The notes beneath the pieces were generated by a model that was not told the DNA's origin, searched no databases, and saw only the letters and a list, made by a program, of their open reading frames with translations. A stretch of 64,000 bases of DNA from Squalus acanthias (taxonomy: Eukaryota), in NCBI GenBank assembly GCA_030390025.1, contig CM059432.1, positions 21,516,001-21,580,000 on the forward strand, in the 5' to 3' direction. Positions 3,004 to 56,620 of the stretch are shown here, one piece after another. Numbering within the stretch: the first letter of the stretch is position 1; each line of letters starts with the position of its first letter. Both the position numbers and the translations under genes were made by a program.

Positions 3004-3309
3004 CGTGAGGCAATGCAGTCATGTCATGCCTGTGTGCTTATTTAAACTTTAAATTGGAAGGTAGTCATTTAAAAGAGTGAGATAAATTTGCAGATCACAT
3101 CAAGCTGTTTTAATTGGGAAGAGGCAAAAAGAAAAATTGTGAATGCTGGAAAATTAAAATAAAGGCAATAGCACTGGAAATGCATAGCAAGTTGAAAACA
3201 ACCTGAAAGAAAGAAAGTATTAGGTCAACATTTCAGGCATTGTTGAAACAATTCTGTTCAGCCGAACGCTTGAAATGTTCTTTCTATCTCAGGAAATAGC
3301 TGAATGACT

Positions 3310-3475
3310 GTGACAGCTTCCCTCAGTTGGTTGCACCAGTTGCCTGTGAGTCAGAAGGTTGTAGTTTTAAGTCCATTCCAGGGCATGAGCACTTTATTAC
3401 TGAGGGAGTGCTTCACTATTGGAGATGTCGTCCATGAGATCCGATGTTGAAGCCAGACCTGCCTGTCTGTTCCAA
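3310..3475 (+). mobile_element. tRNA-headed SINE fragment (Deu/SacSINE-like)
   Basis: tRNA-like head (ctcagttggttgcacc..gagtcagaaggttgtagttttaagtcc) followed by ctgagggagtgc; related pieces near 14800, 38960, 41660, 46455 and 53050. Family assignment from memory. Confidence 0.55.
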
Positions 3476-4550: not shown

Positions 4551-4747
4551 CTCATCATTTTGGTGAACGTGCTGTAGGACATCTAAGCTACCTTCCTTTG
4601 TGTGCTTCCAGGAACTTCTGGGCCCGAGGTGGGTCTCTTTACTCTCCAGCCCCCCTCAAATGAAGCATCCTTCCCTGGTTATTACGACAGGAGCGGAACA
4701 GCTTTCGACAAAGAGAGACAAAGATCAGCAAAATGTTTGCAGTAATC
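4551..4747 (-). other. Candidate host exon (mostly non-coding)
   Basis: Minus strand: polypyrimidine acceptor tttttttatgcttggcag| and donor ATGATGAG|gtattg; stops in all three frames; an ATG at 4582 is open to the donor. Confidence 0.3.
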
Positions 4748-5020
4748 CTGCCAAGCATAAAAAAACACACACAAAGGAAAACAGGGTGGGGCGAGGGATC
4801 GTATATTATTGCTGCTCTTTTCCACTGTCACAGTTGAAAATAAATACGTTGTGCCTTATTTTTTTGTCAACTATGTCCAAGATCCATTACTGTAATCACT
4901 TACTAAATTGAGTATATCAGTTGTGCATATGTGCTGGTTAATGTATCATCCCTGTAAATCTTGATTGGGAGTGGGAGGGAAAGCAGGGTACCACTGTTGT
5001 GAGTAAAACAGAACATACTA

Positions 5021-5898
5021 GGGGGTGATTTTGTCAGCGCTCAGGGGTCGGGTTTGGAGGCGGGACTGCTGGCAAAATCAAAAAGATTGGCAGCGGGTCC
5101 CGAACCCACTTCCAACCTGCCTCCAATCAATCTTCCCGGGAGTCGGGTCCCCGATTTGCGCAGGGATCCGACTCCTAGCGGCAGGAAGAGGATTATAGCC
5201 ACTTAACTGCTTGTTAACAGGTAGTTAACAGGCAGTTAAGGGGCTTTTTCCAATTTTTCCAGGTCGACTGCGGGCTTCACGACGCCCAGACACCACGCCA
5301 GGTAAGTGTGGCTTGCGGTGGGTCTACTGTAATGTTTCTTCATTGATGACAGCTGCAGACGTGGTGTGAAGGATCCAATGGTACACTGGTGTATTTCAGA
5401 GGTAAGGAAATGCTGGGAAAATCATTTTTAATGTATTTAGACTTTTCTGTAGGTAATAAGGTTTAAAGTGTTTGTGCAGCCCCACCTCATTGGGAGAACC
5501 TCTCTCACCAGTGACAGATTGCTTCTGTAACCTCACCTGCAGCTGCCATCTGTTTTATACTAAGGAGAGAGTCTCTGGAGAGCCTGGGAGCAAGGGCTCA
5601 CCTTTGTACAGTGATTGGCAGTGTTTGCAGCACATCAATGCTGTCAAACACTGAAAAACCATCTGTCAAACAAAAATAAGCATGTCCACTTTAAGAAAAC
5701 TGACAGATGATGCATCATCAACTGACATTATCTGACACTGGCTTTCTCTTAATTGGCCAGCAAGCCCGCAGGGCGGGCTTAACAAGGCCAATTGATGCAA
5801 AATAGCGTCTGTGCGTCGGACGTCGTTGGGGGCGGGATCGGAACCTGCAAGTCAGCTGACCCGCTCCCAACTCGCACCGAAAGGTAAGATCCCGGCCC
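5021..5898 (+). mobile_element. Non-autonomous PIF/Harbinger-like element (copy A)
   Basis: Both ends align with the reverse complement of 10316-11115 (e.g. agccacttaactg..ttaacaggtagttaacaggcag; aagcccgc.gggcgggcttaacaagg); GGG..CCC termini. Confidence 0.65.
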
Positions 5899-13019: not shown

Positions 13020-14498
13020 TTAGACATGCCAGCCAACAATGGTGCGACATCGCCCATCACACCCAGCATCATGGCTGGGTCCACAAGATTTCTCATGGAG
13101 TTGCCCATCATTTCCATCCTGGAAATCATGGGCTCCAAGCTCTGTGCAAAGCCCCGTGCAATGTTGGAGCCGGGCTCCTCCATGCTCCTTGACACTGACA
13201 AGAGGCTCTCTGGCTGGCTTGCCATTGCACCAAGCATTTCTGTGTTCATGCTCATCACCCTTCTTCAGAAGGCCGCCCCATCGACGACATCTTCAGACAT
13301 CATCAGAATCCTGTGCAGCAGAACTCATGCGCGAACTCTTCCTCCGGGGAGCTGGCACCCAAGCTACACTTTTCCCCTGGCCTGGCTGCAGCCCACTCAT
13401 GCCCGGTGACTCACCCTGAGCAGATTCCGCTTCTATACTACCTTCTAAAGTCCGAGCAGTGCCATTTTCTGAGCTGGTGCCTGCAAGTGTCAGATGCAGT
13501 GACAGTGTGTCTTCTTCTCCTCCTTCACAGTCCTCGGCAACTGGCTGGCCAGGTTGGAGTTCTTGGGTATCTGAAAGGAGAAATGCACAAGGGGCGGGTT
13601 GTGGTGAGGGGAGGGGGGAAAGCAGGATATCCATGCATACATCATCAGCGGCTTGTAAGTGAGAAGAGATTGTGGGATGAGGGGGAAGTGGGATGTGAGA
13701 AGAAGGATTAGATATGAGCGTACTGTCATCATCTGCAATGCTTTCCAATTCCCCGCTTGCCACGGACTCTGCTGCCCCACCAACAATCTCCAGTGCTGCT
13801 TCCTCCAGCTCTGTGAGGTTCTGCAGATGGGCAGCACTGGAGATCGTTGGTGGGGCAGCAGAGTCCGTGGCAAGCGGGGAATTGGAATTGGAAAGCATTG
13901 CAAATGATGACAGTACGCTCATATCTAATCCCCTCCATCCATCTGCTGCTGCTCCCAATGGTTATGAGCAACCTTTGCCTTCAAGAGAAAGGGAAGTGTG
14001 TCAGTGCATGTGGTGCAATGTGTTTGGGTGATGTGCCTGCCATGGTTGAATACCTGGCAGTGTGTGCAAGGTGTGAGATGTGCTTGTGAGTCTTGCAGCA
14101 GTTCTGTGTGAGGGTGAAGTGAAGCTATGATTGTAAGGTATGAGCGGTGATTGCTAGAGATTGTTGGTAGGTGAGTGATGGGGTGTGGTGCATTGAGCAG
14201 TGTGTGAGGCTTGTGGTGCAGATGGTTGGATATGGCATTTGATGACACATTCACTCACCTTCATCACTCGTGTGATGTCATTGAACTTTTTGCGGCACTG
14301 GGTCCAGGTCCTGGGGACAACGCACGTCGCACTGACGGCTTCAGCGATCTCCTCTCATGGCCTTCTGCTGCTCGGCCTTGAAGGCCTCCTGCCCCCTTGT
14401 GGGTATCGGACCCGACAGCATCTTTGAACACCCAGGGCCACGGCCTCCAGTGCCGCATCTGAACATCTCCACACACTTTCTCTCGGCTGTTGGGTCAT
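13020..14498 (-). pseudogene. Decayed 3-exon Myb/SANT-like gene of a PIF/Harbinger transposon
   Basis: Exon 1 (14498-14259, 80 codons): MTQQPRESVWRCSDAALEAV..P*EEIAEAVSATCVVPRTWTQCRKKFNDITRVMK|gtgagt. Exon 2 starts at 13978 (AKVAHNHWEQQQMDGG..LTELEEAALEIVG); exon 3 starts at 13570. Contains an in-frame stop and a frameshift. Confidence 0.8.
13705..13931. repeat. Long inverted repeat (~95-bp arms, ~30-nt loop)
   Basis: 13705-13799 is the near-perfect reverse complement of 13831-13931 (a few substitutions and one 6-nt duplication). Confidence 0.95.
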
Positions 14499-21350: not shown

Positions 21351-21775
21351 ATGCTGTTTCTTATCATATGGCATAATCAATGAAATGAATTGGCAGATGA
21401 ATAATATATACAGTGAAATCTTAGAGTAATAAATATATTAGTCTAAATCTAATTCACATAGAAATCATCTATTCAGTCCTTCGAATGCTTCTGAAGGGAG
21501 AAAAACTTACCTTCATTTGCAATACCTCAACAGTTTCACTCTCATCACATATCTACTCTTAAGATATTGTACTGATATCCTTGAGCGCAAACATTCAGCA
21601 ACACATATGCAATGGATACTGCACAATGATAAATGAAGCCAACATAATGGACAATGTGGAATAATAAATGATTGATGAGATACAAAATGTAATGGAAAGC
21701 AAATTAAAATAATATATAACAATAACTTAACAGAAACTTAACTGGGCCAGCCACATAAATACTGTGGCAACAAGA

Positions 21776-23342
21776 GCATGGGTCCTAGCTATGCCTGCCT
21801 TTTCGTGAGATATGTGGAACACTCTTTGTTCCAGTCCTACTTAGGTCCCCTCCCTCACCTCTTTTTCCAGTACACTGATGACTGTATCGGTGCCGTTTCC
21901 TGCTCTCGCTCTGAACTAGATAATTTCATTCACTTTGCTTCCAATTTCCACCCTTCCCTCACCTTCACATGGTCCATCTCCGACTCTTCCCTTCCCTTCC
22001 TCGACTTCTCCGTCTCCATCTCTGGGGATAGGTTATTGACAAATATTCACTACAAGCCCACTGACTCCCACAGCTACCTGGACTACACTTCCTCCCACTC
22101 CGCTTCCTGTAAGGACTCTATTCCATTCTCCCAGTTTCTTCATCTTTGCCGCATCTGCTCTGACGATACCACCTTCCATACCAGTGCTTCTGACATGTCT
22201 TCCTCTTTCCTCCACCGAGGAATCCCCTCTACAGTGGTTGATATGGCCCTTGACCGTGTCCATTCTATCTCCCGCACTTCTGCCCTCACCCCTGCCCCTC
22301 CCTTCTGGAACCACGACAGAGTTCCCCTTGTCCTCACCTTTCACCCCACCAGCCTCCACATTCAACGGATCATCCTCCGCCATTTCCGCCACCTCCAGCG
22401 TGATCCCACCACCAAACGCATCTTCCCCTCACCTCCCCTTTCAGCATTCCGTAGGGACCGCTCCCTCCGCGACACCCTAGTCCACTCCTCTATCACCCCC
22501 AACACCCCTTCCCCTTCGCCCGACACCTTCCCGTGAAAGCGCAGGAGATGCAACACATGCCCTTATACCTCCCCTCTTCCCACTGTCCAGGGCCCCAAAC
22601 ACCCCTTCCAGGTGAAACAGCGATTTACTTGTACTTCTTGCAATTTAGTATACTGTATTCGCTGCTCACGATGTGGTCTCCTCTACATTGGGGAAACCAA
22701 ACGCAGATTGGGTGACCGTTTTGCGGAACACCTCCGTTCAGTCTGTAAGTGGGACCCCGAGCTTCTGGTCGCCTGTCACTTTAATTCTCCGCTCCACTTC
22801 CACTCAGACCTCACCGTCCTCGACCTCTTTCATTGTTCCACGGAAGCTCAGCGTAAGCTCGAGGAACAGCACCTCATCTTTCGATTAGGCACTTTACAGA
22901 CTTCTGGACTCAACATAGAGTTCAACAATTTCAGATCATAACCTCGGCCCCTCTCATATATATATATTTTATCCACACTCTTTGTCTGCCTTTTTTTCTT
23001 CTCCCCCACATGGCAGCTGTCTTTCATTCTGCCAGCGCAATTTACACTTCATCTAGAGCCATCCTTTGTTTCTTAACCTGTCCCATTACCATCTCCTTTT
23101 GCCTTGAATATCTCTTAATGTCTCTTAACCTCTTCCGCCTTCTATCCTATCACAGACCTTCTCTTTTGTTCTTTCATCCCCTCCCCCCTTTCCCAGCTTC
23201 TACCCTTGCTTAAAAATCTGTTCCATTTCCTGCTTTTTTCCAGTTCTGACGAAAGGTCATCGACCTGAAACGTTATCTCTGTTTCTCTCTTCACAGATGC
23301 TGCCTGACCTGCTGAGTTTCTCCAGCATTTTCTGTTTTGATT
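21776..23342 (+). mobile_element. Penelope-like element, 5'-truncated (RT C-terminus plus GIY-YIG endonuclease)
   Basis: MGPSYACLF..FFQYTDDC..LPFLD..IHYKPTD; NLVYCIRCSRCGLLYIGETKRRLGDRFAEH; premature TGA at 22534, where the 43-kb copy has TGC. Confidence 0.92.
23242..23278 (+). ncRNA. Hammerhead ribozyme motif, partly degenerate
   Basis: AGTT-CTGACGA-A-AGGTC/ATC/GACCT-GAAA-CGTT-ATCT; the stem I partner carries a mismatch. Confidence 0.6.
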
Positions 23343-23344
23343 TT

Positions 23345-23957
23345 AGAGCAGGTCAGAGGCTGGGTATTCTGCGGCGAGTGTCTCACCTCCTGACTCCCCA
23401 AAGCCTTTCCACCATCTACAAGGCACAAGTCAAGAGTGTGATGGAATACTCTCCACTTGCCTGGATGAGTGCAGCTCCAACAACACTCAAGAAGCTCGAC
23501 ACCATCCAAGACAAAGCAGCCCGCTTGATCGGCACCCCATCCACCACATTAAACATTCACTCCCTCCATCATCGGTGTACGGTGGCTGCAGTGTGTACTA
23601 TCTACAAGATGCACTGCAGCAACTCGCCAAGGCTTCTTCGACAGCACCTCCCAAACCCACGACCTCTACCACCTAGAAGGACAAGGGCAGCAGGCGCATG
23701 GGAACACCACCACCTCCAAGTTCCCTTCCAAGTCACACATAATCCTGACTTGGAAGTATATTGTCATTCCTTCATTGCCATTGGGTCAAAATCCTAGAAC
23801 CCCCTCCTTAACAGCACTGTCGGAGTACTTTCACCACAAGCACTGCAACGGTTCAAGAAGGCGGTTCACCACCACCTTCTCAAGGGCGACTAGGGATGGG
23901 TAATAAATGCTGGCCTTGCCAGCGATGCCCACATCCCACAAACAAATAGAAAAAAAA
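23345..23957 (+). mobile_element. LINE (CR1/L2 group) 3' fragment
   Basis: RAGQRLGILRRVSHLLTPQSLSTIYKAQVKSVMEYSPLAWMSA..LDTIQDKAARLIG; 3' UTR with AATAAA and an A-rich end. Confidence 0.8.
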
Positions 23958-24845: not shown

Positions 24846-27800
24846 GATTATAAGGTGTTCAGGAAAGATAGGGAAGGAAAAGGAGGGAGGTGGGGTGGCA
24901 GCATTGATTAAGGAAAATATTACAGTGCTGGAGAGAGAGGATGTCCTGGAGGGGTGAAGGACAGAATCTATTTGGTTAGAGTTGAGAATGAATAGAGGTG
25001 CCATTACACTACTAGGTGTGTTCGAAAAGCCGCCAACTAGTGGGAAGGATATAGAGGGGCAAATTTGCTGGGAAATTACAGAGAGGTGCAAGAACTATAG
25101 AGTAGTGATAATGGGGGACTTCAACTATCCTAATATAGACTGGGATAGTAATAGTGTAAAGGGCAGAGAGGGGGAAGAATTTCTGAAGTGTGTTCAGGAG
25201 AACTTTCTTGATCAGTACATTTCTGGACCAACGAGGAAGGAGGCATTGCTGGATCTGGTTCTGGGGAATGAGGTGGGTCAAGTATAGCAAGTGTCAGTAG
25301 GGGAATATTTAGGGAACAGTGACCACCATATCATAAGATTTAGACTAGCTATGGTAAAGGACAGGGAGCAATCTAGAGTAAAAATACTTAATTGGAGGAA
25401 GGCCAATTTCAGTGGGTTGAGAATGGATCTGGCCCGGGTAAATTGGAATCAAAGATTGGCAGGCAAAACTGTAATCGAACAATGGGCTGCTTTTAAAGAG
25501 GAGATGGTTCGGGTACAGTTGAGGTACATTCCCATGAGGGGGAAAGGTAGGGCAAAAAAAGCCAGAGCTCTCTGGATGATGAAAGAGATAGAGTAAGATG
25601 AAGCAGAAAAAGTGGGCATATGACAGATGTCAGGTTCAGAATACAAGTGAGAACCAGGCTGAATATAGAAAGTTCAGAGGGGAAGTGAAAAAGGAAATAA
25701 GAGGGGCAAAGAGAGAGTATGAGAATAGAAAGCAGCTAACATAAAAAGGAATCCAAAAGTCTTCTATAGGCATATAAATAGTGAACGGGTATTAAGAGGA
25801 GGGGTGGGGCTGATTAGGGACCAAAAAGGAGAACTATGCATGAAGGCAGAGGGTATGCCTGAGGTGCTAAATTAATACTTTGCATCTGTCTTAACCAAGG
25901 AAGAAGATGCTGCCATAGACATAGTGAAAGAGGAGATAGAGGAGGTACTGGATGGGATAAAAATTGATAAAGAGGAGGTACTAGAAAGGCCAGATGGGCT
26001 GACTGTACTTAAAGTAAATAAGTCACCAGGATACTGAGGGAAGTAAAGGTGGATATTGCGGAGTTACTGGCCATAATCTTCCAATTCTCCTTGGATACGG
26101 GGCTGGTGCATGAGGACTGGAGAACTGCAAATGTTACACCCTTGTTCAAAAAAGGGTGTAAGAATAAACCCAGCAACTATAGGCCAGTCAGTTTAACCTT
26201 GGTAGTGGGGAAGCTTTTAGAAACGATAATCTGGGACAAAATTAACAGTCACTTGGACAAGTATGGATTAATTAAGGAAAGCCAACATGGATTTGTTAAA
26301 GGCAAATCATGTCTGACTAACTTGATTGAGTTTTTTGCTGAGGTAATAGAGAGGGTTGATGAGGGCAATGTGGTTGATGTGGTGTACATGGACTTCGAAA
26401 AGACTTTTGATAAAGTGCCACATAATAGGCCTGCCAGCAAAGTTGAAGCCCATGGAATAAAAGGGACAGTGGCAGTATGGATACAAAATTGGCTTAGTGA
26501 CAGGAAACAGATAGTAGTGGTGAATGGTTGTTTTTCGGATTGGAGGAAGGTGTACAGGGTGTTCCCCAGGAGTCAGTACTAGGATCACTGCTTTTCTTGA
26601 TATATATTAATGACTTAGACTTGGGTGTGCAGGGCACAATTTCAAAATTTGCAGATGACACAAAACTCGGAAGTACAGTGAACAGTGAGGAGGATAGTGA
26701 TAGACTTCAAGAGGGCATAGACAGGCTGGTGGAATGGATGAACACGTGGCAGATGAAATTTAATGCAGAAAAGTGCGAAGTAATACATTTTGGTAGGAAG
26801 AATGAGGAGAGGCAATATAAACTAAAGGGTACAATTCTAAAGGTGGTGCATGAACAGAGAGACCTGGGGGTATATGTGCACAAATCATTGAAGGTGGCAG
26901 TAAGGGTTAATTATAAGTCCTAGCCCTTTTGGACTACCCCAGATCAGGCGTATTCCCCAGACGTTTACCTTCAACTAAAGTTAGTGGTAGCCGGATCCTA
27001 TAAGATGCTTAATTGGGTCTAAAGGTCAGACTACCTCTCCCTAAAGGAAAGAAATGGTCTAAAGATGTTACCATCCTCCGGATAGTACTTTTAATAAGTT
27101 TAACTAGACTGTAACATTCCAGATATTATGAGGGTCCGGAATACCCCCCAGAATTCTGCAACTCCTCACTGAAGAGTGTACAGAAATTTGAGTTTGCGAG
27201 ATGATACAGAAATACTCTTTGAGATAATTCTAAAAATATATAGATTCATTAAAGAACCGACATTTAGTTAACATCTGTTATGGCAATCGCAACTTTAACC
27301 GTTCAAAATACAAATAGTTTATATTTCTTATCAGAGATCCTTATTCTCAAATCTTAACTTTGTTACATTTCCACACTTCTACTTATTTCCTAATCCAGAA
27401 TATCCACCAAAATCAAATACCTTGATTACCCGAGACTCAAAATTGAAAACTTACAGAGAGTGTCTGTGAAGTTGAAAAACGCTTGTCTTCCCAGTGACTT
27501 CTGACTTTCTATCTGAAAAGCTCTTATTTTTATATCTTTTTTTTGGTGGCTTATCCTTTGAAGTATTCATGCTGATGTAAGCTAATTGTGTTTATTGATA
27601 TCTCTGTTGTATGATTTCTGTCTTTACTGTCAATTTAGCCATTGCCTGCATAATTATGTCTCTACCTTAGATGTTTCAAAAACCATCATAAACACAATGA
27701 CAGCAATGGTTTCTGTTTGATGCAATTCTTAGGAAGTCTTTCTATTGAATTTCTAATACTACTTTAACTGGTTATTATCAGTCTTTGTGACTCTGTGGTA

Positions 27801-29184
27801 TTCCAAGTTCAATACAAGAACAATGTAATTGCTTGGTGCATCCATTGAAGTAATATTTTCAAAGTTGTCTTGTTTGTGTACCTTTTTCAACTTGTAAATA
27901 CTTTATCTAGGGTGTTCCATACATTTCTTATTTACTTCAATTGGTTTTTATCAGACCTCGGGACTCCATATTTCAAGCTTAACATTAAAACTATTTGTTC
28001 AGCAGGCGTTTCTTTTACTTGATGTCATTTCTTCAAAGCCTTCTGTAGGTATCATATTTACAATATGTAAATTGAAAACACTTTAACTCAGTGTTTACTT
28101 GTTTTGTAGCTATCTCAATTGGTTCCATATTTAATCATGTTTCCTGTCTTATTTGATGTTATATTATGAAGGCTTATGGTTGTTTAATATTCTAAGTTTC
28201 TGTTTGCATCAGTGTTAGCTTTTGACACTTTAAACTGGGTGATTCCATTGTTTTGGTTCCAATGTTCAGCCATAGAGGAACCTCCAATGGTTTGCTTCAA
28301 TAGGGGCTTCATCTTTGTCAATATCCCATTCCCATATCAAAGCTTATGTTCACAGCTTTGTGTTAACAAACCATCTTATCTCATAAGCCTGCATTGTGCC
28401 TGCCGCCTGTGTCTGCTAAGGCTTATGTCTTTTAAACCCAGTATGACATTTATTAATAATTTCAGAAATCTGTTCTTAGTATCGTGTATTTTTCTGAATC
28501 CTGGCTATTCCTTCACAGCAGGGCAGGTTGAGAAAGCAGTTAAAAAAGCATACGGGATCGTGGGCTTCATAAATTGAGGCACAGAGTACAAAAGCAGGGA
28601 AGTTAAGATGAACCTTTACAAAACACTGGTTCAGCACTGGAGTATTGTGTCCAATTCTGGGCACTGCACTTTAGGAAGGATTGAAGGCCTTAGAGAGGGT
28701 GCAGAAAAGATTTACAAAATAGTTCCAGGGATGAGGGACTTCAATTACGTGGATAGACTGGAGAAGCTGGGGTTGTTCTCCTTAGAGCAGAGAAGGTTGA
28801 GAGGAGATTTGATAGAGGTGTTCAAAATCACGAGGGGTCTAGACAGAGTAGATAGAGAGAAACTGTTTCCATTGGTGGAAGGGTTGAGAACCAGAGGACA
28901 CAAATTTATGGTGATTGGCAGAAGAACCAAAGGCGACATGAGGAAAAACCTTTTTACGCAGCGAGTGGTTAGGATCTGGAATTCACTGCCTGAAAGGGTG
29001 GTAGAGGCAGATTCAATCATGGCTTTCAAAAGGGAATTGGATAAGTACCTGAAGGAAAAAAATTTGCAGGGCTACGGGGAAAGGTGGGGGAGTGGGAATA
29101 GCTGAAGTGCTCTTGCAGTGAGCCGGCATGGGCTTGACGGGCCGAATGGCATCCGTCTGTGCTCTAACCATTCTATGATTCTAT
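24846..29184 (+). mobile_element. Decayed CR1 LINE (APE endonuclease plus RT), split by a solo LTR at 26901-28517
   Basis: VIMGDFNYPNIDW; GNSDHHII; NYRPVSLT..QHGFVKGKSCLTNL; KFADDTKL. The CR1 sequence resumes at 28518 (AGQVEKAVKKAYG) and ends in a ttctatgattctat tail. Confidence 0.93.
26901..28517 (-). mobile_element. Solo retroviral-type LTR, 1617 bp, 4-bp TSD (family X, copy 1)
   Basis: Minus strand begins TGTGAAGGAATA and ends TAATTAACCCTTA; GCAG duplicated (26897-26900, 28518-28521); TATAAAAA at 27534 and GTAAGT at 27454; aligns end to end with 31500-33727. Confidence 0.88.
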
Positions 29185-30174
29185 AATTCCTTTGCTCCTC
29201 TACCCCATTTAGAATTTCCAAAGAGTATGTGGCCTCCTAATTCTTCCTACCAATATACACCACCTCACGCTTGTGTATATTGAATTATAGAATTATATAT
29301 ATATTATATCATGGCTGATCTGCAGCTCAACTCCATTTAATTCGACTTTGATTGTACCCTTTGTTATCTTACCTAATAAACCTGTCAATCTCTGTCTTGA
29401 AACACAGCCTTTTGGGGGAGAGACTTCCAGATTTCCACTACCCTTTGTGTGAAAAAGTGCTTCCTGATTTCACTTCTGAGTGGCCTAGCTCTGATTTTGA
29501 GATTGTGTCCTCTTGATCTGGAATAGTTTCTCTTGACTTGATTGTCACGGGGAGGCGGGAAGGGTATGGGGGAGCCCAGTAGCGGGTGACAAACCCGGCA
29601 AGGCTGGGGTCCTGGAGGCCCTGCCAGGTTTATTATTGACAGCCGTCTTCGGCACGGCAGGGAGCCGGGTGGAGTATTCTTGCTCTTCACGGTTCCACAT
29701 TAAGGTAAACTGCGTTCAGGGCAGACCAATCTTGCAGTGGGAGCCTCAATCTCTGTTAGGGCCTTTGCATGTGCAAATAAGGGCCCTAACGCCTGTTTCA
29801 GGCGCAGGCCTTGGACGCCTCATTTTCTGCCTTTACCAATATGGCGGCGGCGCGCTTCAGACACGGGCTCGCCAGCCTCCGGACAAAATATTCATTTTTG
29901 AAAGATTTCCACTTTGCCTAGTTCAATCTTTCACTTTGTGTATGGCAGATGGTGTATCACTGTTATTAACATGTCATTTGAATATGCTGCTGACATCTGC
30001 CATCACTTCTGACAGAAGATCCAGACATGCAGCACAGGACGGGGAGCTGGGAAATGCTGGATAACAGGCAACAAATCCGTGGAAAATCCCAGACATGATG
30101 TCCAAGCCGACACATGGTGAATAACCACATGGGCAAAGTACCAGACAGTGTCTGCTATCTGTGTAACCTTACCT

Positions 30175-31123
30175 CACACTCACTGGAAGGAGACACCGCA
30201 TGACACACTCACTGGAAGGAGACACCGCGGGACACACTCGCTAGAAGGAGACACCACGGGACACACTCACTGGAGGGAGACACCGCGGGACACACTCACT
30301 GGAGGGAGACACCGCGGGACACACTCGCTAGAAGGAGACACCGCGGGACACACTCACTGGAGGGAGACACCGCGGGACACACTCACTGGAAGGAGACACC
30401 GCGGGACACACTCGCTAGAAGGAGACACCACGGGACACACTCACTGGAAGGTGACACCGCGGGACACATTCACTGGAAGGAGACACCGTGGGACACCCCC
30501 ACTGGAGACATCGCGGGACACACTCACTGGAAGGAGACACCGCGGGACACACTCACTGGAAGGAGACACCGTGGGACACACTCACTGGAAGGAGACACCG
30601 TGGGACACACTCACTGGAAGGTGACACCGCGGGACACACTCACTGGAAGGAGACACCGCGGGACACACTCACTGGAAGGAGACACTGCAGGACACATTCA
30701 CTGGAAGGAGACACCGCGGGACACACTCACTGGAAGGAGACACCGCGGGACACACTCACTGGAAGGAGACACCGTGGGACACACTCACTGGAAGGAGACA
30801 CCGCGGGACACACTCACTGGAAGGAGACACCGCGGGACACACTCACTGGAAGGAGACACCGCGGGACACACTCACTGGAAGGAGACACCGCGGGACACAC
30901 TCACTGGAAGGAGACACCGCGGGACACACTCACTGGAAGGAGAGACACCGCGGGCCACACTCACTGGAAGGAGACACCACGGGACACACTCATTGGAAGG
31001 AGACACCGCGGGACACACTCACTGGAAGGAGACACCGCGGGACACACTCGCTAGAAGGAGACACCGCGGGATACACTCACTGGAGGGAGACACCGCGGGA
31101 CACACTCACTGGAAGGAGACACA
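30175..31123. repeat. 29-bp minisatellite, about 32 units
   Basis: Unit CACACTCACTGGAAGGAGACACCGCGGGA repeated head to tail with no spacers. Confidence 0.97.
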
Positions 31124-31130
31124 CTATAAG

Positions 31131-31499
31131 GAGGTCGGGACCCAGGAGCGAGGACGGGGCCCAGGAGCGCGGACGGGGCCCAGGAGCGAGGACGAGACCC
31201 AGGAGCAAGGTCGAGGCCCCGGAGCGAGGTCGGGACACAGGAGCGAGGACGAGCCCAGCAGTAAGGTCAAGGCCCAGGAGTGGCGCAGCGTGGACCAGCA
31301 GCGGGGTCAGGAGGACCACACTGCAGCCTATGAAACCCAGGCAGAGAGGACCTGCGGGAAGGAGGGAGGAGGACAGTAGGAGTATGTTTGTGTGTGTGCG
31401 CTAGGCCGATGTAGCAGAGCCTGGTCTCCAATCGTCTTGGATCCCCTTACCATTGGACCAAGACCTTGCTTTGTCAAGCCCGTGTGAAAGCTGGTGTGC
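31131..31499 (+). mobile_element. Probable 5' leader of the RTE element, with a ~19-bp tandem repeat
   Basis: About 8 units of CCCAGGAGCGAGGACGGGG (31131-31280). Removing the LTR joins ..gctggtgtgc to aacggccaccccacgttaaaa, which leads into the RTE ORF. Confidence 0.6.
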
Positions 31500-33727
31500 T
31501 GTGAAGGAATAAGCAATATACCTATTCAGAAAAAATACACCATCCTATGAAAGAATTTTGACTTTATTAAAACATGACAAACTGGGCTTGAAAATCTAAA
31601 AACTTAACAATGGAAAAGCTGTAAACAGCATACAGGCTGTTGAGATAAGATAAGCTGTTGACACTGAATCAATAGTCTTAATGAAACAGAAGGTTAAAGG
31701 TTCCTGAAAGTCTGCAGCCTTGAAAAGAACACAATGGTATACCCTGTTAAAGTGTCTTAAACCAACACTTCGGAAAGAATCACAGAAAATTAAAGAAGCA
31801 TATGCCTTCGTAAAAATGACATCAAATGAAACACGGAGACACGAGTCTGTAATACAACCAGTTGAGGTAACTAAGAAGACAATGGTGCATCCGACTGAGG
31901 TGTTCTAAATGCAAAAGATACAAACAGAAGACCTTGGTAAGAATGACATCAAATAGATGCACCAGCCATCACATTGTTTTTGTGTTAAGCTTGAGACACC
32001 TACACAGGAGACATAATTCTTAATGCTACCAGCTGAACTAACTGTAAGAATAACAGGGGCCAACAGAAAAATGACTAGAGATAATGAGCTTACATCAGCA
32101 GAAAACTTCAAAGGAAATACCACTGAGAAATGGTATAAAAATTGGACTTTCAAATGGGAAGACAGATTCGCTGTAAAGGGGCAAAGCAATTCTCGGCTTC
32201 AGAGACAAGCTCTGTAAGTCTACAACTTTGTATCTCGGGGATCAAGGTACTTGTATTTGATTTTGGTGGATATCCTGGAATAGACTAAGAAATGTAAAAA
32301 TATAACGAAGTTAAGATTTCAGAATAGGGATCTCTGATAATAAGATTGTAAAAGCTGTTTGTATTTGGAACTGTTAATGTCGCGATTGAAACACCTACTG
32401 TAATTACATGTCGGTTCTTTAATAAATCTATATATTTTTAGAATTGTCTCACATAGTATTTCTGTATCAAACTCGCAAACTCAATCTCTGTACACTCTTT
32501 GGTGAAGAGTTGCGGAATTCTGAGGGAGTTTTCCGGACCCTCATAATATCCAGAACATTACAGTCTAGCTAAACTTATTAATCTTATCTCCAAGTTTGCA
32601 GATGACACAAAGCTGGGTGGGCGTGTGTGCTGCGAGGAGGATACCGAGAAACTCCAGGATGATTTGGACAGGTTGGGTGAGTGGGCAGAAGCATGGCAGA
32701 TGCAATATAACGTGGATAAATGCGAGGTTATCCACTTTGGTGTCAAAAACAGAAAGGCAGACTATTATATGAATGGCAATAGATTGGGAGAAGGGGAAGT
32801 GCAACGAGACCTGGGTGTCCTTGTGCACCAGTCGCTGAAGGTAAGCATGCAGGTGCAGCAGGCGGTGAAGAAGGCAAATGGTATGTTGGCCTTCATAGCG
32901 AAAGGGTTTGAGTATAGGAACAGGGATGTCCTGCTGCAGTTGTACAGGGCCTTGGTGAGACCACACCTTGAGTACTGTGTGCAGTTTCGGTCGCCTTATC
33001 TGAGGAAGGATGTTCTTGCCATGGAAGGAGTTCAGCGAAGATTCACAAGGCTGATACCTGGGATGGCAGGAATGACATATGAGGAGAGATTGGGTCGATT
33101 GGGCTTATACTCGCTGGAGTATAGAAGAATGAGAGGGGATCTCATCGAAACATATAAAATTCTGACAGGTCTGGACAAACTAGATGCAGGAAGAATGTTC
33201 CCGATGGTCGGAGAGTCCAGAACCAGGGGTCATAATCTAAGGATAAGGGGTAAGCCATTTAGGACAGAAATGAGGAAGAATTTCTTCACCCAGAGAGTGG
33301 TGAACCTGTGGAATTCTCTACCACAGAAGGTAGTTGAGGCCAAGTCATTAAATATATTCAAGAATGAGTTAGATATATTTCTTAAAGCTAAAGGTATCAA
33401 GGGATATGGGGAGAAGGCAGGTACAGAGTACTAAGTTTGGATGATCAGCCATGATCTCATCGAATGGCGGAGCAGGCTCGAGGGGCCGAATGGCCTACTC
33501 CTGCTCCTATCTTCTATGTTTCTATGTTTCTATGTGAGTGCTATCTGGAGGACGGTAACATCTTCAGGTTGTTCCTTTCCTTTAGGGAGAGATTGTCCGG
33601 ACCTTTAGACCCAATTAAGCGTCTTTAGGATTCGGCTACCTAAAACTTTAGTTGAAGGTGAACGTCTGGGGAATACGCCTGATCCGGGGTAGCCCTAAAG
33701 GGGCTAGGACTAGTAATTATCCCTTCA
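31500..33727 (+). mobile_element. Solo retroviral-type LTR, 1274 bp net of a CR1 insertion, 4-bp TSD (family X, copy 2)
   Basis: TGTGAAGGAATA...TAATTATCCCTTCA; GTGC duplicated (31496-31499, 33728-33731); TATAAAA at 32134, GTAAGT at 32214, AATAAA at 32421. Confidence 0.9.
32582..33535 (+). mobile_element. Young 5'-truncated CR1 LINE inserted in the LTR
   Basis: Uninterrupted RT C-terminal frame (SKFADDTKLGG.. to the stop at 33434); (TTCTATGT)n tail; its flanks are contiguous in LTR copy 1. Confidence 0.95.
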
Positions 33728-36700
33728 GTGCAACGGCCACCCCACGTTAAAAGAATTCACGCACAGGCATCTTCCACCCTTTAAAATGAAGTTCGGAAAT
33801 AGAACGGCAGGACCCTCATGGACAACCCCAACAGCAAAAGGCCGGAACGCCGTACTGCTTTCGTTGCCCGGGAACTCAGACATTTCGACATAGACATCGC
33901 TGCCCTAAGCGAGACCCGACGGGCAGGGGAAGGCCAGCTCAAGGAGCAAGGCGGTGGTTACACCTTTTTCTGGAAAGGCAAACCTGAAGAAGAACGCCGC
34001 CTCCATGGGGTAGGCTTCACCATAAAAAATGAGCTAGTTGAACGTCTCAGAGACTCCCCTTGTGGAATAAATGAACGCCTCATCACTCTACGGCTCACCC
34101 TAGCCCGGAACCATTGTGCTACGGTCATCAGTGTGTACGCCCCAATACTGGAAGTAAAGACGAGACCAAAGAGGAATTCTACTCCAACCTCGAACAATCC
34201 CTGTCTCGAGTCCAAACGGGTGACAAGCTGATCCTCCTCGACGACTTTAACGCCAGTGTTGGAAAGGACACAGACCTCTGGGGAGGTGTGATCGGCAGAG
34301 AGGGGGTAGGGAAAGCCAACTCCAACGGTACCCTCCTCCTAACGAAATGCTTAGAACATGGCCTTGTCATAACCAACACCTTGTTCCGTCAGAGAGACAA
34401 GTACAAAGCTTCATGGCAGCACACTCGCTCCAAGCACTGGCATCTGCTGGACTATGTCATTGTCCGAGCGAGGGACCGCAAGGGCGTCCGCATCACCTGC
34501 GCCATGACAGGAGCCGACGACTGCTGGACAGACCACTGCCTAATCCGCTCTGTCATCTCCATCAACGTAGCCCCAAAACAACAGCGGCAACAGAAGCAAT
34601 GCCGCAGGAAAATCAACGCTGGAGCACTCAAAGACGCTGCTAAGAAAGCCCTATTCAGCCTGCACCTCACAACCAACCTGACTCCCAGTGATTCAGAGAC
34701 ACAACGTGCCCACAGTGCCTGGTCTGCACTCAAAGCCTCCATAATTAGCACCTGTGAAGAGACGCTCGGTCACTCGACCAGGAAACACCAAGACTGGTTC
34801 GACGAGAATGACCAGGAGATCCAGGAGCTAATAAGTCGCAAGCGCAAGGCATTCCTGATCAGGAAACAGCAAAAGAACTCGAGAGCAAGAAAGCAGCTCT
34901 ACAGATGACTGAAGGCGGAGGTCCAACAAAAAACTCGTGACCTAAAGAACAGATGGTGGGTAGAGAAAGCGCAGTAGATCCAGAAGCTAGCCGACAACCA
35001 CGGCGTGCGTGGATTCTTTAGCGCAGTCAAGACCACCTGTGGCCCAAGCACCCAAGGTCCTACCCCACTGTGGGCCAAGAACGGAGAGGTACTCATCAAG
35101 GACAGAGAGACAATGCCCGCTAAAAGGAGCACTTCGAAGATCTCTTTAACCGAGACTCTGTCTTTGACGTGAGTGTCCTCAACTCTATCCCGCAGCATGC
35201 TACCCGCCACCACCTCAGCACAACCCCAGTCTGACATGAGATTGAAAAGGCCGATTCGACAACTGAAGAACAACAAGACCTCAGGAACAGATGGAATCCC
35301 TGCCGAGGCGCTAAAACATGGCGGAGAAGCACTATTGGCGCGAATACATAAACTCATTTCTCTTATTTGGAAGGAGGAGAGCATGCCAGGGGATCTCAGA
35401 GATGCCGTAATCGTGACCATCTTCAAGAAAGGTGACAAGTCCGATTGCGATAATTACAGAGGAGTCTCCCTGATGTCTGCCACAGGGAAAGTCATCGCAA
35501 GAATCCTCCTCAATCGCCTTCTCCCAGTGGCTGAAGAGCTCCTCCCAGTGTCGCAATGCGGATTCCGCCCACTAAGGGGCACAATGGACATGATCTTCAC
35601 CGCGCGTCAACTACAAGAGAAATGCAGGGAACAGCATCAACCACTGTACATGGCCTTCTTTGATCTCACAAAGGCCTTCGACACCATCAACCATGAAGGA
35701 TTATGGAGTGTCCTCCTCAAATTTGGCTGCCCTCAAAAGTTTGTCACCATCCTCCGCCTGTTTCACGACGACATGCAAGCCGTGATCCTGACCAATGGAT
35801 CCACCACAGACCCAATTCACGTACGGACCGGGGTCAAGCAAGGCTGTGTTATCGCATCAACGCTCTTCTCGATCTTCCTGGCTGCAATGCTCCATCTCAC
35901 CCTCAGTAAGCTCCCCACTGGAGTGGAGCTAATCTACAGAACAAATGGGAAACTGTTCAATCTCCGTCGCCTCCACTCCAGATCCAAGGTCATCCCATCC
36001 TCTGTCATTGAATTACAATATGCAGACGACGCTTGCATCTGTGCACACTAAACATCTGTAAGACAAAAGTCCTCTACCAACCTGTCCCCGCCACACAGTA
36101 CTGCTGCCCGATTATCAAAATCCATGACGAGGCCTTGGACAACGTGGACCACTGTCCATACCTCGGGAGCCGACTGTCAACAAGGGCAGACGTCGATGAC
36201 AAAGTCCAACACCGCCTTCAGTGTGCCAGCGCTGCCTTCGGTCGCCTGAGGAAGAGACTGTTTGAAGACCAGGACCTCAAACCCAGCACCAAGCTCATGG
36301 TCTACAGAGCAGTAGTGATACCCGCCCTCCTGTATGCTTCAGAGACATGGACCATGTACAGCATGCACCTCAAAGCACTGGAGAGGTACCACCAACGCTG
36401 CCTCCGCAAGATCCTGCAAATCCATTGGCAGGATAGGCGCACCAACATCGTTGTTCTCGCTCAGGCCAACATCCCCAGCATCGAATCTTTGACCACGCTT
36501 GATCAGCTCCAATGGACGGGCCACATCATCCGCATGCCCGATACGAGACTTCCAAAACAAGCGCTCTACTGAGAGCTCCGACACGGCAAGAGAGCCCCAG
36601 GTGGGCAGAGGAAACGCTTCAAGGATACCCTCAAAGCCTCCTTGAAAAAGTGCAACATCCCCAACGACACCTGGGAATCCCTGGCCCAAGACCGCACAAA

Positions 36701-36950
36701 GTGGAGGAGAAGCATCCGGGAAGGCGCCGAACACCTCGAGTCTCTTCGCCGGGAGCAAGCGGAAGCCAAGCGCAAACAGCGGAAGGAGCGCACGTCAACC
36801 CAAGCACCCCACCCACCCGCCCCTTCAACCACCGTCTGCCCCACCTGTGACAGAGACTGTAGGTCCCGCATTGGACTCATCAGTCACCTGAGAACTCATT
36901 TTTAATGTGGAAGCAAGTCATCCTCGGTTCCGAGGGACTGCTTAAGCAAA
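33728..36950 (+). mobile_element. Near full-length RTE-clade LINE (APE, RT, C-terminal C2H2), disrupted
   Basis: MDNPNSKRPERRTA..DIAALSETR; WTDHCLI; FFDLTKAFDT; GVKQGCV; LQYADD; CPTCDRDCRSRIGLISHLRTH; stops, frameshifts and a deletion after YADD. Confidence 0.95.
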
Positions 36951-42242: not shown

Positions 42243-42856
42243 ATAGAGGCATACAGTATAAAAGCAAGAAAGTTATGATGAACCTTTATAAAACACTGGT
42301 TCAGCCTCAACTGGACTAGTGTGTCCCATTCTGGGCACCGCACTTTAGGAACGCCTGAGAGAGGGGGCAGAAAAGATTTACGAGAATGGTTCCAGGGATG
42401 AGGGACTTCAGTTACGTGGATAGACTGGAGAAGCTGGGGTTGTTCTCCTTAGAGCAGTGAAGGTTGAGAGGAAGTTTGATAGAGGTGTTAAAAATCATGA
42501 TGGGTCTAGACAGAGTAGATAGACTGAAACTGTTCCCATTGGCGGAAGGGTCAAGGACCAGAGGACACAGATTTTATGGTGATTGGCAAAAGAACCAAAG
42601 GCGACATGAGGAAAAACTTTTTTATGCAGCGAGTGGTTAGGATCTGGAATGCAATGCCTGAGAGGGTGGTGGAGGCAGACTCAGTCATGGCTTTCATAAG
42701 GGAATTGGATAAGTACCTGAAGGAAAAAAAAATTGCAGGGCTACAGGGAAAGGGTGGAGGAGTGGGACTAGCTGAAGTTCTCTTGCAGAGAGCCGACACG
42801 GGCTCGACGGGCCAAAGGGCTTCCTTCTGTACTGTAACCATTCTATGATTCTATGA
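42243..42856 (+). mobile_element. CR1 LINE 3' fragment
   Basis: Closely similar to 28575-29184; ttctatgattctatg tail. Confidence 0.9.
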
Positions 42857-43084
42857 ATACACCGAATCTGAAAAACTCACCACAGAAAATGACATCAGTA
42901 TTACCTGGGGTTGCTCCAACAGACACCATCACCCGATACCACCAGCAGTTCACAGCCAAACACACCTGGACTGCTTGAGGCTGCTACTTTCACATCAAAT
43001 GCCTCTTCCACCAAGCCTTCGGCCCAGAATAAGTGCCATTCCTGCTTTCCCAAGCACTCCAAACCAGGAAGGAAGGAGAAATGC

Positions 43085-44180
43085 CGTGTCCGTTCTATCT
43101 CCCGCACATCTGCCCTCACCCCTGCCCCTCCCTCCCGGAACCACGATAGGGTTCCCCTTGTCCTCACCTTTCACCCCACCAGCCTCCACATTCAACGGAT
43201 CATCCTCCGCCATTTCCGCCACCTCCAGCGTGATCCCACCACCAAACACATCTTCCCCTCACCTCCCCTTTCAGCATTCCGCAGGGACCGCTCCCTCCGC
43301 GACACCCTAGTCCACTCCTCTACCACCCCCAGCACCCCTTCCCCTTCGCCCGGCACCTTCCCGTGCACGCGCAGGAGATGCAACACATGCCCTTATACCT
43401 CCCCTCTTCCCACTGTCCAGGGCCCCAAACACCCCTTCCAGGTGAAACAGCGATTTACTTGTACTTCCTGCAATTTAGTATACTGTATTCGCTGCTCACG
43501 ATGTGGACTCCTCTACATTGGGGAGACCAAACGCAGATTGGGTGACCGCTTTGCGGAACACCTCCGTTCAGTCCGTAAGGGGGACCCCGAGCTCCCGGTG
43601 GCCTGTCACTTTAATTCACCGCTTCACTCCCACTCTGACCTCACCGTCCTCGGCCTAATACACTGTTCCACGGAAGCTCAGCGTAAGCTCGAGGAACAGC
43701 ACCTCATCTTTCGTTTAGGCACGCTACAGCCCTCTGGACTCAATATCGAGTTCAACAATTTTAGATCATAACCTCAGCTCCAATCACATTTATATTTTAT
43801 TTTATCCACCCTTTTATTTGTCCCCCCCACCTTTTTTTTCCTCCTAGAAGCTGGCAGCTGTCCTTCATTCTGCCAGTAGATTTCACACTTCATTCAGCCT
43901 TAATCTGTCACATTAACACCACCTCTAGCCTTGCATATCTCTTAATGTCTCTTAATGTCTCTTCATCTCCTCCTTTGTTCCTTTATCCCCTCCCCCTTTT
44001 CCCAGCTTTACCCTGGCCTTAAATCTATTTGATTTCCAGCTCTTCCCAGTTCTGATGAAAGGTCATCGACCTGAAACGTCAACTCTGTTTCTCTCTCCAC
44101 GGATGCTGCCTGGCCTGCTGAGTTTTTCCAGCGTTTTCTGTTGTTATTTCGGATTTCCAGCATCTGCAGTATTTTGCTAT
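43085..44180 (+). mobile_element. Penelope-like element, 5'-truncated (open GIY-YIG frame plus 3' region)
   Basis: RVPLVLTFHP..CTRRRCNTC..NLVYCIRCSRCGLLYIGETKRRLGDRFAEH..GLNIEF; near-identical to 22255-22941. Confidence 0.93.
44048..44084 (+). ncRNA. Minimal type I hammerhead ribozyme motif
   Basis: Stem I AGTT/AACT, core CTGATGA, stem II AGGTC-atc-GACCT, GAAA, palindromic ACGT stem III, GTC cleavage triplet (predicted cut after 44080). Confidence 0.75.
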
Positions 44181-53696: not shown

Positions 53697-56620
53697 CGGT
53701 ATAAACGAGCGCTTCATGACTCTTCGGCTCACCCTAGCCCGGAACCAGTGCGCTACAGTCTTCAGTGCGTACACCCCAACACTGGAAGCCACAGATGAGA
53801 CCAAAGAGGAATTCTACTCCAGCCTCGAACAATCCCTGTCTCGAGTCCCAACGGGCGACAAGCTGATCCTCCTCGGCGACTTTAACGCCAAAGTTGGAAA
53901 GGACACAGACCTCTGGGGAGGTGTGATTGGCAGAGAGGGGGTAGGGAAAGCCAACTCCACCGGTACCCTCCTCCTATCGAAATGCTCAGAACATGGCCTT
54001 GTCATAACCAACACCTTGTTCCATCAGAGAGACAAGTACAAGGCTTCATGGCAGCACCCTCGCTCCAAGCACTTGCATCTGCTGGACTACGTCATCGTCC
54101 GAGCGAGGGACCGCAAGGACGTCCGCATCACCTGCGCCATGACAGGAGCTGACGACTGCTGGATAGACCATCGCCTAATCCGCTCTGTCATCTCCATCAA
54201 TGTAGCCCCAGAACAGCGGCGGCAACCGAAACAATGCTGCAGGAAAATCAACGCTGGAGCACTCAAAGACCCCGCTAAGAAAGCCCTATTCAGCCTGCAC
54301 CTCACAAACAACATGATGACACCCAGTGATGCAGAGACACAGAGTGTCCATAGCGCCCGGTCTGCACAAAAGGCCTCCATAATCAGCACCTGTGAAGAGA
54401 CGCTCGGTCACTCGACCAGGAAACACCAAGACTGGTTCGACGAGAACGACCAGGAGATCCAGAAGCTAATAAGCCGCAAGCGCAAGGCATTCCTGATCTG
54501 GAAACAGCAACACAACTCGAGAGCAAGAAAACAGCTCTACAGACGCCTGAAGGCCGAGTTCCAACAAAAAACTCGCGACCTAAAGAACAGATGGAGGGTG
54601 GAGAAAGCGCAGGAGATACAGCAGCTAGCTGACAACCATGGATTCTTTAGCGCAGTCAAGACCATCTACGGTCCAAGCACCCAAGGTCCTACCCCACTGT
54701 GGGCCAAGAACGGAGAGGTACTCATCAAGGACAGAGAGGCAGTCAGTGCCCGCTGGAAGGAGCACTTCGAAGATCTCCTTAACCGAGACTCTGTCTTCAA
54801 CACAAGTGTCCTCAACTCCATCCCGCAGCATACTACCCGCCACCACCTCAGCACAACCCCAGCCCGGCATGAGGAGGAATAGGCCATCTGACAACTGAAG
54901 AACAACAAGGCCTCAGGAGCAGATGGAATCCCTGCCGAGGCACTAAAGCATGGCGGAGAAGCACTACTGGCGCGAATTCATGAACTCATTTCTCTTATCT
55001 GGAAGGAGGAGAGCATGCCAGGGGATCTCAGAGATGCCGTAATTGTGACCATCTTCAAGAAAGGTGACAAGTCCGATTGCGGTAATTACAGAGGGGTTTC
55101 CCTGCTGTCTGCCACAGGGAAAGTCATCGCAAGAATCCTCCTCAATCGCCTTCTCCCAGTGGCCGAAGAGCTCCTCCCAGAGTCGCAATGCGGATTCCGC
55201 CCACTAAGGGGCACAATGGACATGATCTTCACCGCGTGTCAATTACAAGAGAAATGCAGGGAACATCACCAACTGCTGTACATGGCCTTCTTTGATCTTA
55301 CAAAGGCCTTCAACACTGTCAACCGTGAGCGATTATGGAGTGTCCTCCTCAAATTCGGCTGCCTACAAAAGTTTGTCACCATCCTCCGCCTGCTTCACGA
55401 CGACATGCAAGCCGTGATCCTGACCAACGGTTCGACCACAGACCCAATTCACGTACGGACCGGGGTCAAGCAAGGCTGTGTCATCGCACCAACGCTCTTC
55501 TCGATCTTCCTTGCTGCAATCTCCATCTCACCCTCAATAAGCTCCCCGCTGGAGTGGAGCTAATTTACAGAACAAACGGGAAACTGTTCAATCTCCATCG
55601 CCTCCAGTCCAGATCCAAGGTCATCCCATCCTCTGTCATCGAATTACAGTATGCAGACGACGCTTGTGTGTCATCGCTCACTCAGAGGTCGAACTCCAAA
55701 CCATCATCAACACCTTCACCGAAGTGTACGAGAGCATGGGCCTTACACTAAACATCCGTAAGACAAAGGTCCTCTACCAACCTGCCCCCACCACACAGTA
55801 CTGTCCCCCGATTATCAAAATCCATGACAAGGCCTTGGACAACGTGGACCACTTTCAATACCTTGGAAGTTTACTGTCAACAAGGGCAGATGTCGATGAC
55901 GAAGTCCAACACTGCCTTCAGTGTGCCAGTGCAGCCTTTGGTCGCCTGAGGAAGAGAGTGTTTGAAGACCAGGACCTCAAACCTGGCACTAAGCTCATGG
56001 TCTACAGAGCCCTCCTGTATGCCTCAGCGACATGGACCATGTACAGCAGGCACCTCAAAGCACTGGAGAGGTACCACCAACGATGCCTCCACAAGATCTT
56101 GCAAATCCATTGGCAGGATAGGCGCACCAACGTCAGTGTTCTTGCTCAGGCCAACATCCCCAGCATCAAAGCTTTGACCACGCTCGATCAGCTCCGATCG
56201 TCCGATACGAGACTCCCAAAACAAGCACTCTACTCTGAGCTCCGTCACGGCAAGAGAGCCCCAGGTGGGCAGAGGAAACGCTTCAAGAATACACTCAAAG
56301 CCTCCTTGAAAAAGTGCAACATCCCCACTGACACCTGGGAATCCCTGGCCCAAGACCGCACAAAGTGGAGGAGAAGTATCCGGGAAGGCGCTGAACACCT
56401 CGAGTCTCTTCGCCGGGAGCAAGCGGAAGCCAAGCGCAAACCGCGCAAGGAGTGCACGTCAACCCGAGAACCCCACCCACCCGCCCCTTCAACCACCGTC
56501 TGCCCCACCTGTAACAGAGACTGTAGGTCTCGCATTGGACTCATCAGTCACCTGAGAACTCATTTTTAATGTGGAAGCAAGTTATCCTCGGTTCCGAGGG
56601 ACTGCCTAAGAAGAAGAAGA
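53697..56620 (+). mobile_element. RTE-clade LINE, 5'-truncated and disrupted
   Basis: LILLGDFNAKVG; GVKQGCVIAPTLF; YADD; C-terminal CPTC..HLRTH; (AAG)n tail; closely similar to 34.0-36.9 kb. Confidence 0.95.

Follow-up and report, generated by a model that had tools for sequence, protein, structure and literature searches.

Two solo long terminal repeats in Squalus acanthias come from a foamy-like endogenous retrovirus with gag and pol in one frame

Textbooks set foamy viruses apart from all other retroviruses by their independent expression of Pol, and the endogenous members of the group are commonly portrayed as rare. For cartilaginous fish, endogenous foamy viruses have already been published: judging from its title, a paper by Wang, Chen and Cui (2023; J Virol 97:e0181622) reportedly describes a cartilaginous fish endogenous foamy virus (CFEFV) that roots the vertebrate foamy viruses. 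CFEFV is the most likely published home of the elements considered here. These are two solo long terminal repeats (LTRs) in a stretch of 64,000 nucleotides from the shark Squalus acanthias (assembly GCA_030390025.1, contig CM059432.1, positions 21,516,001 to 21,580,000; "the window"), together with the family of endogenous retroviruses (ERVs) to which they belong. Other shark or chimaera elements are described in PMC5512871, PMC4422223, and PMC10699275.

The shark family has much in common with the prototype, simian, and feline foamy viruses (PFV, SFV, and FFV). Like them, it has a foamy Gag without a Cys-His (CCHC) box, an A9 protease, a reverse transcriptase (RT) that bears YVDD, an integrase with SH3_11, two furin-type sites in Env, a lysine-type primer-binding site (PBS), GGG|TG at the polypurine tract (PPT), a 4-bp target-site duplication (TSD), and a poly(A) signal in the R region of the LTR with donor-like sites upstream. 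Unlike them, it has gag and pol in one frame with a TGA between them and no methionine at which Pol could start, it lacks the WXXW motif and any homology to tas or bet, and most of its copies lack env. R is also predicted to be longer than in PFV, with AATAAA near +258 instead of +168 (PMC3694450).

Among endogenous elements, the avian ERV-Spuma-Cbo (PMC6955096) and the coelacanth CoeEFV (PMC3386198) also have one or more accessory frames after env. CoeEFV shares a PF03408-type Env with the shark family (PMC3386198), and ERV-Spuma-Cbo shares the presence of solo LTRs. But the gag of ERV-Spuma-Cbo (650-2083) overlaps its pol (2046-5465) in another frame, and the elements found numbered only 13 (PMC6955096), whereas the shark family has thousands of LTRs and a single frame. 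The foamy-like ERVs (FLERVs) of teleosts (DrFV and AcERV/AciFLERV) and of a chimaera (CmiFLERV) resemble the shark family in their spuma-related Pol, Lys PBS, GGGTG motif, 4-nt TSD, and lack of a Cys-His box, but no homology to foamy viruses can be detected in their Gag or Env, whereas both proteins of the shark family do show it (PMC5210030, PMC5512871). Finally, the frog class III ERV XtERV-S also has gag and pol in one frame with a TGA between them, and its predicted env splice excludes the PBS. Unlike the shark family, it has a class I Env and a dUTPase, and it is described as not particularly foamy-like (PMC8278194). We treat XtERV-S as a precedent where the mechanism is concerned, but not as one for the clade.

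Both LTRs in the window are solo LTRs of a foamy-like ERV. Copy 1 (26901-28517, minus strand, 1617 bp) has the TSD GCAG on both sides (26897-26900 and 28518-28521, plus strand). Copy 2 (31500-33727, plus strand, about 1274 bp net of a nested LINE piece, that is, a piece of a long interspersed nuclear element) has the TSD GTGC on both sides (31496-31499 and 33728-33731, plus strand). Both copies have termini of the TG...CA type (in copy 1, the terminus is CCCTTA). These positions and TSDs confirm a reading of this DNA made beforehand from the letters alone (the sequence-only reading), which had also proposed the foamy-like identity. The two copies have identities of 78% and 86% in R/U5 and 67-70% in U3. 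In copy 1, two stretches align with parts of copy 2 that overlap each other, so its longer U3 includes an internal duplication. Copy 1 represents a long-U3 subfamily; copy 2 belongs to a short-U3 group and is 90% identical to both LTRs of an env-less provirus (L100).

The family is large. A 21-mer in R around the poly(A) signal has 4,352 exact matches in the genome, while the reversed control has none, so the LTR family is not due to chance. We found just 192 junctions between an LTR end and a PBS, which implies that most copies of the family are solo LTRs. Exact 5' ends were found 478 times for the copy-1 type, 2,517 times for a pattern that covers the copy-2-related short types, and 65 times for the main env-associated type. 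(All of these counts are of exact matches and are lower bounds.) By 5'-end counts, then, the LTRs of env-bearing copies ("env-type") are about 45-fold rarer than the amplified types.

Family members also share the expected integration and priming signals. Among 29 solo copies with both ends readable, 24 have an exact 4-bp TSD, four match at three of the four positions, one is unclear, and none has a TSD of 5 or 6 bp. The sequence-only reading took the 4-bp TSD as a foamy sign; the TSD is real, but it is shared with gammaretroviruses (PMC5210030). GGG|TG is present at the PPT-LTR border of proviruses. The tRNA-Lys PBS that was expected is there too: in many copies, a Lys-type PBS directly follows the LTR and GT. 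The full 18-nt PBS, with one change, was seen only in the env-bearing copy C20, where it resembles the avian PBS in PMC6955096. Most proviruses (L008-type, such as L012, L018, and L021) have 14 nt of the Lys-type PBS and then a fixed stretch that does not match. We assigned the PBS from its sequence and not from a host tRNA gene, and we presume that the label Lys1,2 applies. As a separate observation, L031/L032 (G000:C1:51.05-51.07 Mb) is a tandem provirus: LTR-internal-LTR is followed by a second PBS and gag that are 99% identical to the first.

We then examined the internal genes, using ORFs (open reading frames) from twenty stretches downstream of PBS candidates. In Pfam, these ORFs match Gag_FV_central (PF20672, E = 2e-15), RVT_1, the tether, RNase H, and an integrase with SH3_11. 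The protease matches Spuma_A9PTase (PF03539) with 34.7 bits (the cut-off is 21); it is above the cut-off in all three of the protease-containing ORFs and is in frame with RT. The Gag matches structures of PFV Gag (5M1H and 8OZK), and its C-terminus is G/R-rich, with glycine plus arginine making up about 0.19 of the last 150 amino acids. Among 1.8 billion representatives, the top match for the RT was the Pol of feline foamy virus, at 40% identity, and we found no protein above about 41% identity to the family. A search for homologs of the family's Gag gave no match at E = 0.001.

Phylogenetic trees place the family with foamy viruses. In the RT tree, it lies inside the spuma clade (99 by the Shimodaira-Hasegawa-like approximate likelihood ratio test, SH-aLRT), along with PFV/FFV, an element from a newt, a fragment from a catshark, and an unnamed protein, P0007. 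The RT from Scyliorhinus torazame (P0012) groups near the family in RT trees. In the integrase tree, the family joins PFV, SFV, and FFV (support 99/100). The approximately unbiased (AU) test rejects a joint clade with the teleost FLERVs (p = 0.014) and is compatible with a sister position to the mammalian foamy viruses (p = 0.17). (The RT set for the AU tests left out P0146, P0051, P0103, the second Scortum, the second Pleurodeles, SFV, P0061, and P0076.) The unnamed relative P0007 is a single Gag-Pol ORF of 1687 amino acids from an 11-kb contig. Its Gag gave no significant match to the family's Gag (E = 0.99), so the link between P0007 and the family is through Pol alone. P0007 shares a YNLRPR motif with PFV Gag.

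The family also has a foamy Env. PF03408 matches six loci, and all six copies are broken. (This search used a stricter first look, so six is a lower bound.) All six loci carry gag/pol of the family, at 85-95% nucleotide identity, and five have homologous R/U5; the five env-bearing copies in the integrase tree form one clade (support 100). The Env is laid out as leader (LP), surface (SU), and transmembrane (TM) parts, with a hydrophobic segment in the leader and two furin-type sites (RKRR and RHKKR/RRKKR in C6 and C20). The TM part matches the foamy Env structure 8RM1 (E = 7e-13). With regard to an internal promoter, a TATAAAA is present about 1.33 kb before the stop codon of env in three of the six env-bearing copies. 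We did not find a second copy of the PPT in pol.

In C6, a frame of 256 codons with two stops lies between env and U3, which is the position of tas in foamy viruses (L063:8262-9029, minus strand). It is rich in Cys and His and runs into U3; in other env-bearing copies, it is shortened by deletions. We consider it a candidate accessory gene. It matches no Pfam family and no known homolog; its best score in Atlas (0.86) was to a cluster with 10% zf-BED, which is only a lead. The sequence-only reading suggested looking for accessory ORFs overlapping U3, but in the window copies the longest open stretches of U3 are 50 and 66 codons, with no accessory ORF. From the few broken env-bearing copies, the layout of the element is LTR - PBS(Lys) - gag - TGA - pro-pol - env(LP-SU-TM) - candidate accessory frame - PPT - LTR.

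Loss of env is generally linked to high copy number in ERVs. Among 18 stretches picked by their gag-pol junction, the span from integrase to the 3' LTR is visible in 13, and env is absent from all 13. The same deletion junction is found in 21 of 22 env-less copies, whether their LTRs are long or short; the remaining copy is interrupted there. Because one junction is common to long- and short-LTR copies, one env-deleted ancestor likely gave rise to both LTR types in the window. The sequence-only reading had proposed two related viral lineages; the two LTRs are instead likely to be subfamilies from one env-deleted ancestor.

The ages of the insertions can be roughly compared from the mismatch between paired LTRs. 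(We compared 13 pairs, of which two did not align.) Mismatch is 1.5-3.7% in seven env-less pairs and 2.9-6.4% in four env-bearing pairs, which corresponds to roughly 15-65 million years at the catshark rate of PMC10699275, and to more than twice that at the rate of PMC4422223. Also, solo LTRs of amplified types are inserted in env-bearing proviruses of their own family (L061/L062 in C20 and L064 in C6), so the env-less burst was active after those env-bearing insertions. We consider it likely that one env-deleted descendant multiplied by retrotransposition, with its U3 diverging into long and short subfamilies, and that it gave rise to copies with internal deletions that were moved in trans.

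Alternatively, the env-less copies might have spread by reinfection, packaged by a helper virus with env, instead of by intracellular retrotransposition. The ages of env-bearing and env-less copies do overlap, and many copies are internal, non-autonomous deletions that would need help in trans anyway. But the rarity of env-type LTRs speaks against a helper, env-less copies with complete gag-pol spans exist, and a primate foamy virus can retrotranspose intracellularly (PMC3705263). We therefore think that reinfection with a helper is unlikely, and we prefer retrotransposition of an env-deleted descendant within cells.

How was Pol made? The gag gene has 526 codons, and its terminal stop is in frame with pro-pol. 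Among 79 copies, the junction codon is TGA in 63, TGG in 14, and TGC in two. In the pol frame, the protease's DTG is at codon 29 after the stop, while the first methionine is at codon 104 (in three of three copies). Of the first 100 copies among the matches listed, 98 share one spacing before the protease. The only env-bearing copy that keeps the gag-pol junction (C17) also has TGA, and the sequence directly downstream of the stop can fold into a GC-rich stem. On the simplest reading, this gene layout suggests that Pol was probably made as a Gag-Pol fusion by readthrough of UGA, possibly helped by the stem. In keeping with this, XtERV-S has a like TGA layout (PMC8278194), engineered PFV tolerates a fusion of Gag to Pol (PMC3196705), and P0007 has its Gag-Pol in a single ORF. 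Since Pol has neither its own AUG nor a frame other than that of Gag, we file the family as foamy-like and not as a canonical foamy virus. In the literature that we searched, we found no in-frame stop, readthrough, or env-less burst described for an endogenous foamy virus; the two most relevant papers were outside that set. (A Gag and RT model from Pleurodeles, P0168, lacks the protease and looks like a join made by gene prediction, so we excluded it from the question of frame.)

If Pol were instead made in the foamy style, from a spliced RNA, then a donor in R would be joined to an unusual acceptor beside the gag stop, or translation would begin at a non-AUG codon. In every exogenous foamy virus, Pol comes from a spliced mRNA of its own (PMC7828637), the shark family has donor-like sites in R upstream of its poly(A) signal, and env-less copies have an ATG in a different frame a short way ahead of the gag stop. 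However, the frame of that ATG closes before the active site of the protease, and the ATG is missing from the env-bearing copy C17. The AG dinucleotides near the gag stop have no pyrimidine tract, and there is no methionine before DTG in the pol frame. Overall, a spliced Pol seems quite improbable.

About as doubtful is the idea that the virus had an uninterrupted Gag-Pol ORF, in which case copies with TGA would have made nothing but Gag and relied on copies with a sense codon, which made Gag-Pol. The 14 TGG copies, with no CGA or TAA variant among the 79, imply that replication passed TGG on. The Gag-Pol of P0007 has no interruption, and engineered in-frame Gag-Pol fusions of PFV are infectious (PMC3196705). 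But TGA is the majority state and is also found in the env-bearing C17, and several of the TGG copies have deletions in gag or pol and fall mainly in one derived env-less clade. We still regard readthrough of UGA as the probable route to Pol.

The donor-like sites are best judged by how well they are kept. In copy 1, on the minus strand, a TATA box (TATAAAA, a predicted promoter, 27528-27534) is followed 80 nt on by the putative donor-like site 1 in R (CTCT|GTAAGT, 27449-27454), then by the putative site 2 (ATCAAG|GTA, 27418-27423) and by a poly(A) signal that is mutated to AATGAA (27245-27250; 53 of 56 copies have AATAAA). In copy 2, on the plus strand, the TATA box (TATAAAA, also a predicted promoter) is at 32134-32140, the putative sites are at 32214-32219 (site 1, GTAAGT) and 32244-32249 (site 2, AAG|GTA), and the poly(A) signal at 32421-32426 is AATAAA, which is kept better than any other hexamer in the region. 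These are all where the sequence-only reading had put them. It also expected the donor and its 80-nt spacing to be conserved, which is only partly so. Site 1 lies 79-81 nt after TATA in 52 of 56 LTRs, but GTAAGT itself is carried by 41 of 51 amplified-type LTRs and by none of 22 env-type LTRs (0/5 proviral and 0/17 further readable copies). Moreover, 18.5% of the hexamers in R are kept at least as well. A donor at +51, a position that depends on an assumed start site, is thus ruled out as a hallmark of the family. This was the key argument of the sequence-only reading, and it was weak; the guess of the family was right.

Site 2 is of a type that env-type LTRs do keep: AAG|GTA is about 115 nt after TATA in five of five proviral and 14 of 17 further copies, and a fourth LTR type carries it as well. 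The whole family thus has a donor-like site upstream of the poly(A) signal. PFV is alike in this: there, binding of U1 at the donor in R silences the 5' poly(A) site (PMC3694450). We lean slightly towards a role for a donor in R, more likely site 2 than site 1, both in splicing of env and in U1-mediated silencing of the 5' poly(A) site. We compared RNA contigs (from four runs that we guessed to be RNA, in two studies) to two provirus copies, and no listed joint started at either donor; as seven joints were listed for one comparison and the other was swamped by LINE reads, this has no weight for or against splicing.

It has been refuted that these are LTRs of a Gypsy element or of an epsilon- or gamma-like ERV whose foamy-like motifs arose by chance: 4-bp TSDs do occur in gammaretroviruses (PMC5210030) and an in-frame gag-stop-pol is the gamma/epsilon layout (PMC8278194), but the matches of Gag, protease, RT, integrase, and Env are all to foamy families, and AU tests, on a point that the sequence-only reading had named as one that would refute it, reject both placements (p = 0.0003 each, with the outgroup labels Gypsy-like and epsilon/gamma-like being our reading of unnamed or loosely named proteins).

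Several observations do weigh against our interpretation. First, support within the spuma clade is moderate (82.5/78 in one RT tree), and an unplaced protein, P0134, joins the integrase clade, yet its RT groups with Gypsy-like proteins. Second, the count of env-bearing copies is only a floor, the leader of Env has W-x5-W instead of the foamy WXXW motif that binds Gag, and the PBS of env-less copies matches over 14 nt only. Third, readthrough is judged from gene layout, and the junction is kept in just one of the six env-bearing copies, so the layout of the infectious ancestor is read from a single copy. Folding after the stop is only modestly better than in shuffled sequences (z = -0.9 to -2.0 in four copies). 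And the TGG copies do not form a clean clade: one TGA copy and one TAA copy are nested among them, and one TGG copy is weakly placed.

With these points in mind, we still consider it likely that the abundant copies of this foamy-like family, which lack most of env, spread by copying in germ cells, and that the family made Gag-Pol by UGA readthrough. An infectious foamy-like ancestor almost certainly entered the germ line. Env would then have been lost, and the env-less copies likely spread by copying within germ cells. Recombination between the LTRs of proviruses likely left the two solo LTRs in the window.

As for their surroundings, the window copies are ordinary dead solo LTRs in repeat-rich DNA. 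Copy 1 integrated inside a LINE (about 26022-29185, plus strand; the ends are approximate), with RT frames to its left and the 3' part to its right. Copy 2 is interrupted within U5 by a 5'-truncated CR1-type LINE piece of about 955 bp with a short-repeat tail (32582-33536, plus strand), whose best named matches are ray and skate proteins, in keeping with a cartilaginous fish as host. About 370 bp upstream of copy 2 is an array of about 33 units of a 29-bp tandem repeat, followed by a looser GC-rich repeat of about 24 bp (30175-31130). Three related LINE copies (33740-36900, 53700-56600, and 62250-63100) are 91-96% alike over long stretches, and the first of them starts directly after copy 2. 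They encode an endonuclease, an RT, and a C-terminal C2H2 finger, and we read them as RTE-like. Two other related copies (21742-23800 and 42849-43771) have one ORF with a GIY-YIG domain, which suggests a Penelope-like element. At 13705-13931, a near-perfect inverted repeat with arms of 57 nt and 48 nt (98% complementary) could form a long hairpin.

What might this family say about the evolution of foamy viruses? We tentatively propose, at somewhat less than even confidence, that a basal fish branch of the true foamy viruses, those whose Gag and Env are recognisably foamy, used Gag-Pol readthrough of UGA, that the spliced Pol of tetrapod foamy viruses is derived, and that one member of the branch became an env-less retrotransposon whose LTRs number in the thousands. 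Here, a gag-stop-pol layout goes together with foamy Gag, protease, integrase, and Env, so these traits can be uncoupled, and their order of origin is testable. A foamy-type virus can also lose env and behave like a retrotransposon of high copy number, one that spreads promoters, donors, and poly(A) signals across a large genome.

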